DNA from: Octopus vulgaris
Taxonomy: Eukaryota
NCBI GenBank assembly: GCA_951406725.2
Contig: OX597840.1
Span: forward strand, 13,144,001 to 13,208,000
Direction: 5' to 3'
DNA: 64,000 nt
The notes under the pieces are model-generated. The model made no database searches, was not told the DNA's origin, and saw nothing but the letters and a program-made list of their open reading frames with translations. Below are positions 11,301 through 12,919 of the stretch, in pieces. Position 1 is the stretch's first letter. Each line of letters opens with the position of its first letter. Position numbers and translations under genes: made by a program.

Positions 11301-11831
11301 GCACTTCCTCAGTAGTAGACATCTGTTGCTGATGTTGCAAAAAGCCAGTAGAAAATAAATATTAGCAATGGAAACTGCATTAGCTCTGAACTCAATCTTT
11401 GTGCCCTATTTAATGGGGATGTATTATTACAGTACAGTATATTTCAACAGAAATATGTTATTGACAAAGTTAATTCATTAATTTCTTTCTTATTTTTGAA
11501 TTTAATTGAAACAAAGACAGTGTCTTTCAACAGAAGTATGAGAATAAAAGTGTCAACAATGATAAAGTTATTTAATAAATTCTTCATTATTTTCAAAATT
11601 AATTCAGACAAAAGCTGTGTATTTCAACAGAAATACAGTAACAAAGGGGTTAATAATGACAAAATTATTTTACTAAAATTCTTCATTATTTTAAAAATAA
11701 TTTGAAAGAAAGACAGTGTATTTCAGCAGAAATGTAATAGCAAATAATAATGATTAAGTTCAGTTTTATATTTAAGAGATGAGGAATTATTTACATTCGA
11801 CGGTTATTTGTCCTCATCTTGTTTGTTGTTA

Positions 11832-11876
11832 ACACAACATTTCGGCTGATATACTCTCTAAGCCTTCATCAGGTGT
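11832..11876 (-). ncRNA. Minimal type I hammerhead motif in PLE pLTR
   Basis: RC acac-CTGATGA-a-ggct...agcc-GAAA-tg-TT-gtgt; stem I acac/gtgt, stem II ggct/agcc. Confidence 0.65.
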
Positions 11877-12369
11877 CTTGGGGAAATTTCGAACCTGGCT
11901 TCTCATTTCTAAGGTATTTTTCAATGTTGTTGTTATTATTATTATTATTAGTAGTATTAGTATTCAGGTCACTGCTTGGAATCGAACTTGGAATCTTGGG
12001 GTCAGTAGCCCGCACTCTTAACCACTATACCATATGCCCGTGGACAATTATGGAGTGAATTTTAGGGTTTCTAAATCTAATATTTTTCTATCCTTCCTCA
12101 ATACCGGTTCCCATATGTTGTTCATATCTGCACTCGGTCTGCTTAGGAGGTTGTTGTGTCCTAGCATATGTGCTGCTTCTTTTAGTTTTCGTATTTTCCA
12201 GTGGTGTTCTCTGTCTATTATTTTAACTTCATCCCACAGGGGGAGGTGGTCTCCATTTTTCCATACATGATCAGTTATATCCGATTTATCACTAATAATA
12301 ATAATAATAATAACAACAACATCAAAAAATACCTTAGGAATGAGAACCCAGGTTCAAAATTTCCCAAAG

Positions 12370-12413
12370 ACACCTGAAGAAGGCTGGAGGGTATATCAGC
12401 CGAAATGTTGTGT
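12370..12413 (+). ncRNA. Minimal type I hammerhead motif in inverted pLTR
   Basis: acac-CTGAAGA-a-ggctg-gagggtatat-cagcc-GAAA-tg-TT-gtgt. Confidence 0.65.
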
Positions 12414-12919
12414 TAACAACAAACAAGATGAGGACATTTATCAAATAAATATCCATTGAATGTAAATAATGTAAATAATTATTAAGTTATTGCACTAAAT
12501 TCCTTTCCAGAATTAATTGAAAGAGAGGCAGTGTAATTCAATAGAAATATAACTGAAAGAATTGATGGAAGACCAGTGGAGAAGTATGAAGCTTATTCAG
12601 GTTATTAGGATAGAATTATCTGGTGGAGCTTGCTTCAATGAACCTGATTCAGTCACATCACCTGTCAGGATTTTTGGTAGCATTAGGAGCAGAGGTCAGC
12701 AGGAAGACATCCTGTGTTTGTAAGACACTGATTGGTGAAGGTTTTGTTAGGGTTGAGAGTGAGTTGACCCTTGTATATGTAATCTCTGCCAGGGAGTTCA
12801 TAGTAGTGATGCCAAGAAATGGTCGTTTGGTGTAGAATCTAAAATTAGAGTTTAAATGTTGGATTTAAATGTCAGACTTAATATGAGAGAGGCGGATGGA
12901 GAGCTGATGCAAAGAGAGT

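Follow-up and report, generated by a model that had tools for sequence, protein, structure and literature searches.

Two truncated insertions of a Penelope-like element (PLE) were found in the window, i.e. the whole 64,000-nt stretch of Octopus vulgaris DNA that was analysed. Copy 1 lies on the minus strand (11746-12488) and copy 2 on the plus strand (17474-18065); their features are collected in Table 1. For copy 1, the sequence-only reading had proposed the order endonuclease C-terminus, tRNA-like unit, (AAT)n, hammerhead pLTR and inverted pLTR, and each of these pieces was recovered on the minus strand. The predicted recurrence of the tRNA-(AAT)n-hammerhead order was borne out by copy 2. 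This copy is 86-90% identical to copy 1 overall (90% in the tRNA unit) and contains no ORF sequence. By itself it cannot exclude an old SINE capture, because both copies of one family share their order by descent.

Table 1. Features of the two PLE copies in the window (positions in nt from the first letter of the window).
Feature	Position	Strand	Remarks
Copy 1: candidate TSD, left	11746-11760	+	15 bp, 1 mismatch
Copy 1: optional PLE 'tail'	11761-11785	-	25 nt; pairs back onto the pLTR with a 9-bp stem
Copy 1: direct pLTR, 3' part (end of 5' UTR and first ORF codons)	11786-11925	-	140 nt; candidate ATG at 11906
Copy 1: minimal type-I hammerhead within the coding frame	11831-11877	-	helix I 11877-11873/11835-11831; CUGAUGA 11872-11866; GAAA 11843-11840
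Copy 1: (AAT/AAC)n spacer	11926-11964	-	length variable; 320 bp in copy 2
Copy 1: tRNA-derived head	11967-12039	-	73 nt; box A 12032-12022; anticodon-like loop 12008-12002; box B 11987-11978
Copy 1: vestigial palindrome	12030-12053	-	centred immediately upstream of the tRNA-like +1; ORF stop within the left arm
Copy 1: PLE ORF 3' end, C-terminal GIY-YIG endonuclease region	12048-12293	-	5'-truncated; last 80 codons; stop codon 12050-12048
Copy 1: inverted partial pLTR at the truncated 5' end	12291-12473	+	core 12374-12405; stops within the AAT run, without tRNA head
Copy 1: candidate TSD, right	12474-12488	+	pairs with the left TSD
Copy 2: candidate 8-bp TSD	17467-17474 / 18066-18073		weak
Copy 2: inverted 60-bp pLTR end with tail	17474-17533	-	from comparison with the window
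Copy 2: tRNA-derived head	17532-17597	+	from box A on, first 7 nt absent; box B altered
Copy 2: (AAT)n	17600-17919	+	107 units
Copy 2: direct pLTR	17921-18065	+	damaged hammerhead (GAAA box changed, 3-nt deletion)

The inverted pLTR of copy 1 is 86% identical to the direct pLTR of the same copy. Candidate TSDs flank the whole insert at both loci and not the tRNA unit. An equally good pair was obtained in 15 of 3000 AT-rich random pairs for copy 1 and in 128 of 3000 random pairs for copy 2, which makes the latter candidate weak. Copy 1 is embedded in a 97-bp AT-rich tandem repeat (11462-11733), and a long hairpin is located at 11223-11302. Upstream of copy 2, a 26-bp unit is tandemly repeated 11 times (17005-17292).

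Relatives and class of the element

When the ORF end (12293-12048, minus strand) was compared by tblastn, it matched the C-termini of the RT- and endonuclease-containing proteins P0001-P0003 with 67-71% identity (E 1e-26 to 1e-28). A search among longer proteins gave five matches in 65 candidates, with 62-71% identity to the ORF fragment. Identity was 70% to the C-terminus of P0002 and of P0015, an 806-aa member of the P0002 cluster, both of which contain RVT_1, and 54% to full-length P0030. The relatives are animal RT proteins, and precomputed annotation places a GIY-YIG domain (PF01541) in two of them. Pfam yielded no match for the window ORF fragment alone, from which the RT and the GIY-YIG motif itself are missing by truncation. 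An RT followed by a C-terminal GIY-YIG domain in a single ORF, as in EN+ PLEs, is seen through the relatives. Further EN+ PLE features are present at the loci: (i) a pLTR with the first ORF codons; (ii) a minimal type-I hammerhead in the pLTR, recognised by inspection and mutated in the window copies; (iii) an inverted 5' pLTR; (iv) an optional tail; (v) a TSD round the insert, which is weak for copy 2.

Judged from protein similarity, the window ORF fragment is the predicted C-terminus of an endonuclease-bearing PLE; the PLE identity that had been read from the letters is supported by this 67-71% match together with the PLE-type inverted ends and tails. Assignment to the putative Penelope/Poseidon type is based on domain order and anatomy and not on an RT tree. 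In P0015, an additional Cys linker separating RT from EN, such as the Zn-finger linker of Neptune and Nematis, was not apparent by eye. The two loci represent insertions of a PLE family of this type, which has a high copy number; both insertions are 5'-truncated and dead.

The known Penelope/Poseidon PLEs, i.e. D. virilis Penelope, Anolis Poseidon PAc (PMC11167929), the Adineta elements (PMC3846280) and those with minimal hammerhead ribozymes (PMC4209133), have the same order of RT and C-terminal endonuclease as the relatives. They also share the pLTR with first codons and minimal hammerhead, the optional tail, the inverted 5' pLTR, the TSD round the whole insert and the 5' truncation. Unlike in these elements, the window pLTR starts with a tRNA-derived head that carries boxes A and B. 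Pattern scans of viral, metagenome and prokaryote contigs revealed no related locus, and protein-based locus searches gave none that was confirmed. Read by eye, the first ~35 residues of P0022 look as if a truncated ORF had been fused to the antisense strand of a related hammerhead pLTR, which would be an inverted 5' pLTR in a relative.

The hammerhead pLTR and its tRNA-derived head

The hammerhead consists of a CUGAUGA box, a bulged A, a helix II of 5-6 bp, a GAAA box, a 2-nt insert and a helix I of 5 bp. The same make-up is described for minimal PLE ribozymes with a palindromic helix III in the available sections of PMC4209133. Rfam gave no match for the window hammerheads. All three of them have a damaged core, and the palindromic helix-III site is broken in both ribozymes of copy 1. 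At position 11839, 72-80% of the DNA depth has the palindromic base, which differs from that in the window; hence the hammerhead is intact in the family form, and the window copies are decayed.

Translation of the hammerhead segment matched residues 18-51 of the full-length, 847-aa protein P0030, with E values of 2e-6 to 1e-5 in a small search of 54 N-termini. The scores (58-63) were reached by none of 2000 shuffles, and the next best protein scored 28-32. P0030 was the only one of the 54 N-termini to be matched and is the closest relative among the proteins called so far upstream. The hammerhead region thus encodes, as predicted from this match, the first ~50 residues of the ORF, so that each genomic copy has the ORF start at its '3' end'. 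It follows that the pLTR begins with the tRNA unit, which occupies the position of the promoter for a tandem copy downstream. The head lies at the pLTR start, 61-133 nt upstream of the candidate ATG. Placement of the tRNA unit between endonuclease and hammerhead pLTR, as in the sequence-only reading, therefore stands, but the unit is more than a 3' cassette, since the hammerhead pLTR encodes the ORF start. A pLTR coding for the first ORF codons has been described for PLEs of Adineta (PMC3846280) and Anolis (PMC11167929).

Loose ends in all four mapped runs (see next section) define two end points of the element, 11786 and 11761. The tail fold on the pLTR (11761-11819, minus strand; z -3.6) is also present in the inverted end of copy 2. 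Its stem, located between and around both end points, is a candidate RT-start structure. In Anolis Poseidon, reverse transcription begins at the tail of the downstream pLTR, and insertion did not need hammerhead cleavage (PMC11167929). Both loci have one pLTR that terminates with the tail and one whose final 9 nt form short repeats (11786; 18056-18065, 12460-12473), and hundreds of RNA reads contain 9-nt insertions at 11785. Together these observations suggest that copying was reiterated at the site where RT first starts.

In the tRNA-derived head, box A begins at position 8 of the 73 nt, a 7-nt anticodon-like loop begins at position 32, and the distance from box A to box B is 45 nt, which is the offset of a standard tRNA. 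The strict A+B box pattern had two matches in the window as compared with 0.05 expected; this chance estimate is derived from the strict pattern only, and another one that had been fitted post hoc to both copies was left aside. When a cloverleaf was imposed on the copy-1 head, its stems had 2/7, 2/4, 3/5 and 2/5 pairs and are thus decayed. ARAGORN called no gene in the tRNA unit at default settings, and an Rfam search gave no tRNA match for the head. ARAGORN called copy 2 only when the threshold was relaxed to 80, at which 11 of 300 shuffles were called as well. Single-strand folds of the tRNA unit and of the hammerheads were no better than those of shuffles. A tRNA gene was rejected on account of the broken cloverleaf and of the empty ARAGORN (default) and Rfam results. 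On sequence grounds, the head is a SINE-type, tRNA-derived unit with predicted boxes A and B, and it may bear a likeness to tRNA-Arg heads. The octopus OR2 SINE, compared with the head by description only, is described as a CORE SINE in the accessible part of PMC4758252.

The palindrome at the +1 of the head is weak when taken alone (fold z -1.9; 9 of 200 shuffles as good), and it is improved by the majority base at 12044. In 379 reads of the RNA run X23, which may originate from a single locus, the palindrome had the same centre and arms of ~22 bp. Copy 2 is cut 7 nt from the tRNA +1. Palindromes at the 5' ends of pLTRs are known in Adineta, where they were interpreted as self-priming scars (PMC3846280).

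A separate tRNA-headed, SINE-like family is represented in the window by four copies that are 80-89% identical (13995-13701 on the minus strand, 56430-56620, 28608-28805 and 26214-26392). As far as these were compared, no hammerhead pLTR follows them, which sets them apart from the head linked to the PLE. A further tRNA-like unit, with box A and box B and a different sequence, is located at 58866-58919 (plus strand).

Linkage of the head to the family

At least 24 sequencing runs were listed; 14 of them, recorded as DNA or unknown and representing four organisms, contain 48-64% of the words. Four runs were mapped on 11720-12290 at 80% likeness: X1, X3 and X5 (DNA contigs from organisms A, B and C, respectively) and X23 (raw RNA reads); the RNA runs X17-X20, whose word shares were small, were left aside as evidence. 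Summed depth of the head relative to the ORF end was 0.97 (X1), 1.26 (X3) and 0.83 (X5), and 1.45 in the RNA run X23. The corresponding values for the ORF-tRNA junction were 0.74, 0.82, 0.71 and 0.87 relative to the ORF end, and 0.76, 0.65, 0.86 and 0.60 relative to the head. Summed depth amounted to ~0.8-1.0 million on head and ORF end as compared with ~30-75 for most single-locus contigs, which suggests a family of roughly 10^4 copies, a figure that reflects depth and is not a true copy number.

The junction was bridged by four of the 24 contig pieces listed (two in X1, two in X5), with 31 or more letters on each side. These pieces differ by ~13-16% from the window and therefore represent other loci. 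Of the 134 joints, 15 were shown; among these, the joints that skip the head had the depth of a single locus (11907-12054 at a depth of 94; 11903-12045 at 76). Since head depth is close to ORF-end depth, the head is neither a free SINE, for which an excess of the head would be expected, nor a rare insertion, which would show as a deficit. With high probability, the head is a regular member of the family that is present in at least three organisms in most copies reaching the ORF end. Its earlier interpretation as something other than a chance SINE insertion gained support from the depth ratios, the bridging contigs and the candidate TSDs round the whole inserts, and the suspicion that family copies might mostly lack the tRNA segment was answered by depth: among copies with the ORF end, most carry it.

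Depth of the pLTR was 4-5 times that of the head in DNA, so most pLTR pieces are without a head. The excess may be explained by truncation, by inverted pLTR ends terminating within the AAT run, as in copy 1, and by sister families sharing the hammerhead (with differing loose ends at 11858). Evidence that the head is linked to the pLTR comes from both copies in the window and from a single listed contig, as the AAT run was masked in mapping. About 40% of the X23 depth over the ORF carries variants that make up at most ~2% in the DNA contigs, several of them less than 1%. This depth was therefore not read as family expression; it probably stems from one or a few expressed loci.

Candidate promoter function and its alternatives

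PLE transcription is known from one mapped promoter, that of D. virilis Penelope; according to parts of PMC2377424 it is an internal promoter in the transcribed 5' region, LINE-like and with a DPE. In passages of PMC6765202, a downstream tandem PLE copy is transcribed from the promoter position of the upstream pLTR. We propose that an ancestral PLE captured a tRNA-derived, SINE-type head together with its (AAT)n tail, probably via a fold-back template switch that would have left the palindrome at +1, and that the captured head became the internal promoter of the pLTR. In a partial tandem, transcription would proceed from the tRNA +1 through the hammerhead and the ORF, and reverse transcription from the tail of the downstream pLTR would copy back and so regenerate the promoter. 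At a 3' pLTR that stands alone, these boxes would direct a short (~0.3 kb) RNA that contains the RT start region and might serve as a SINE-like template. Copy 2 is a candidate product of such a template. The arguments for and against this scenario as a whole appear evenly balanced to us. Use of the head as a promoter, most likely by Pol III and for RT templates rather than mRNA, likewise has an even chance of being correct. A wider proposal is tentative and rather doubtful: a coding PLE would have exchanged its Pol II internal promoter for a tRNA-derived Pol III promoter, would obtain full-length RT templates in tandems and short, hammerhead-bearing ones from solo pLTRs, and would be an autonomous source both of tRNA-headed, PLE-mobilised non-coding elements (a 'SINE class') and of Sm-alpha-like units. 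Kojima 2024 (PMC10886601, in the excerpts available) holds that Pol III suits only short non-coding elements and that autonomous partners must use Pol II. RNAs made by Pol III are short and serve poorly as mRNAs.

Traces of promoter use were sought in the four mapped runs. No site at which many molecules begin or end was seen in the contigs or reads. A loose end at the head was absent from the best-supported DNA rows (best six per run, with 1681 further rows), which indicates that copies starting at +1 are not the dominant class. Run X23 has equal depth on both strands and derives from a cDNA library, which cannot reveal Pol III RNA. Inversion joints were scattered, each being confined to a single locus. 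No T4 run occurs from +1 to the tail, a finding of no significance in view of its absence also from 2387 of 5000 shuffles; the first T run, at which a short RNA from a solo pLTR would end, lies 28-64 nt beyond the insert at both loci. Avoidance of T runs in the ORF by means of a low Phe content was considered as well and failed (2.9% in 15 close as compared with 3.3% in 104 distant proteins, p 0.053, kinship uncorrected). Boxes A and B have kept their canonical spacing while the stems were lost, a pattern of decay that is also expected of a SINE-derived passenger.

That the head is just such a passive passenger is possible, if short of probable. It would have been captured once by a master element and spread by descent, with a working Pol II internal promoter and inert boxes. 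Box B is altered in copy 2, the mapped runs contain no 5'-end or transcript sign of box use, and in Adineta PLEs readily take up host sequence beside or between pLTRs (PMC3846280). Against a passenger speak the position of the head, which opens the pLTR and has a palindrome centred on its +1, and its retention across copies ~15% apart and in three organisms. We regard it as unlikely that the boxes bind TFIIIC as a chromatin boundary or as a Pol II helper for the downstream ORF, without any Pol III RNA. Roles of B boxes and TFIIIC at boundaries are established, and a long ORF needs a capped RNA for translation, but box A is also held at promoter spacing. An independent SINE, or a Sm-alpha-like tRNA-hammerhead SINE, lying beside PLE remnants by chance is very improbable: copy 2 has no ORF and the junction reaches only 0.65-0.86 of head depth in DNA, leaving room for ORF-less copies, yet head and ORF end are of similar depth, bridging contigs exist, a pLTR follows the head in both window copies with no solo copy in the window, no convincing repeat surrounds the unit (shared words of at most 7 and 5 nt), and both inserts have PLE-type inverted ends and tails. 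With neither TSDs of its own nor an excess over the host element, a free tRNA-SINE is largely refuted.

Promoter use of the head, if it occurs, invites comparison with several known systems. TRIMp3 elements (Cassandra, Helenus and Ajax; PMC10886601, as far as available) likewise have a small-RNA-derived Pol III promoter of proposed SINE origin in their terminal repeat, from which the RT template is made. They are short, non-autonomous LTR elements with PBS and PPT, whereas the promoter candidate described here precedes the hammerhead and the ORF start in the pLTR of a PLE that codes for protein. In Schistosoma Sm-alpha and Sj-alpha, a Pol III-type promoter also lies upstream of a hammerhead (sections of PMC6765202), which is a likeness of architecture only. 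These elements are non-coding and tandem, and their cleavage was shown, whereas the minimal PLE ribozyme studied here is within a coding frame and tied to an ORF end. Animal non-LTR retrozymes have hammerhead units related to PLE pLTRs and were proposed to be non-autonomous PLE derivatives; they form tandem arrays that yield circles, and neither a tRNA head nor a Pol III promoter is mentioned in the passages found of PMC7229834 and bioRxiv 10.64898/2026.07.22.740005. Tandem same-sense hammerhead units, as in Sm-alpha or retrozymes, are absent from both window loci. Their second pLTR is inverted, so no doubly cleaved monomer can arise from them; a circle would require two ribozymes in the same sense. 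No joint of the 'goes back' type was present among the 15 listed out of 134.

The word 'tRNA' is absent from the main texts of PMC4209133, PMC3846280 and PMC2377424 and from the available parts of the retrozyme preprint (bioRxiv 10.64898/2026.07.22.740005); in PMC8557442 and PMC7229834 it occurs in unrelated contexts only. We did not find a tRNA head in a PLE pLTR described in this literature, and a PLE family whose pLTR has a tRNA-derived head as a fixed part appears to be undescribed, with the proviso that Repbase, Dfam, SINEBase or supplements could contain it. The PLE literature examined does not establish partners of the SINE type for these elements. A family of ~10^4 copies with a tRNA-type promoter candidate fixed at the pLTR head offers a direct test of PLE transcription. 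If RNA starts at the tRNA +1 by Pol III, this would mark the start of the PLE transcript, represent a coding retroelement on a SINE promoter and provide a route to Pol III-hammerhead repeats. If the promoter is unused, the family would provide a clearly delimited example of a PLE that has captured a SINE, and repeat annotation would divide such an element into 'SINE' and 'Penelope' pieces.

Additional hammerhead-like sequences were observed elsewhere in the window. A second dispersed repeat contains hammerhead-like cores in inverted pairs (32594-32692, 33481-33700 and 46148-46540; cores at 32622/33515 and 46201), and its copies are probably the pLTRs of a second PLE family. The DNA between two of them (32692-33481) resembles by eye what we take to be a mariner transposase remnant. 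CUGANGA...GAAA motifs occur 12 times in the window as compared with 3.2 expected. Short motifs of this kind at 49702-49860, 28090-28158, 39910-39934 and 32270-32292, including one palindromic inverted pair (49702-49808), are likely to be solo pLTR ends of other PLE families. Finally, an ORF-like stretch at 43650-44250 has the appearance of what is presumably a LINE fragment, again by eye.
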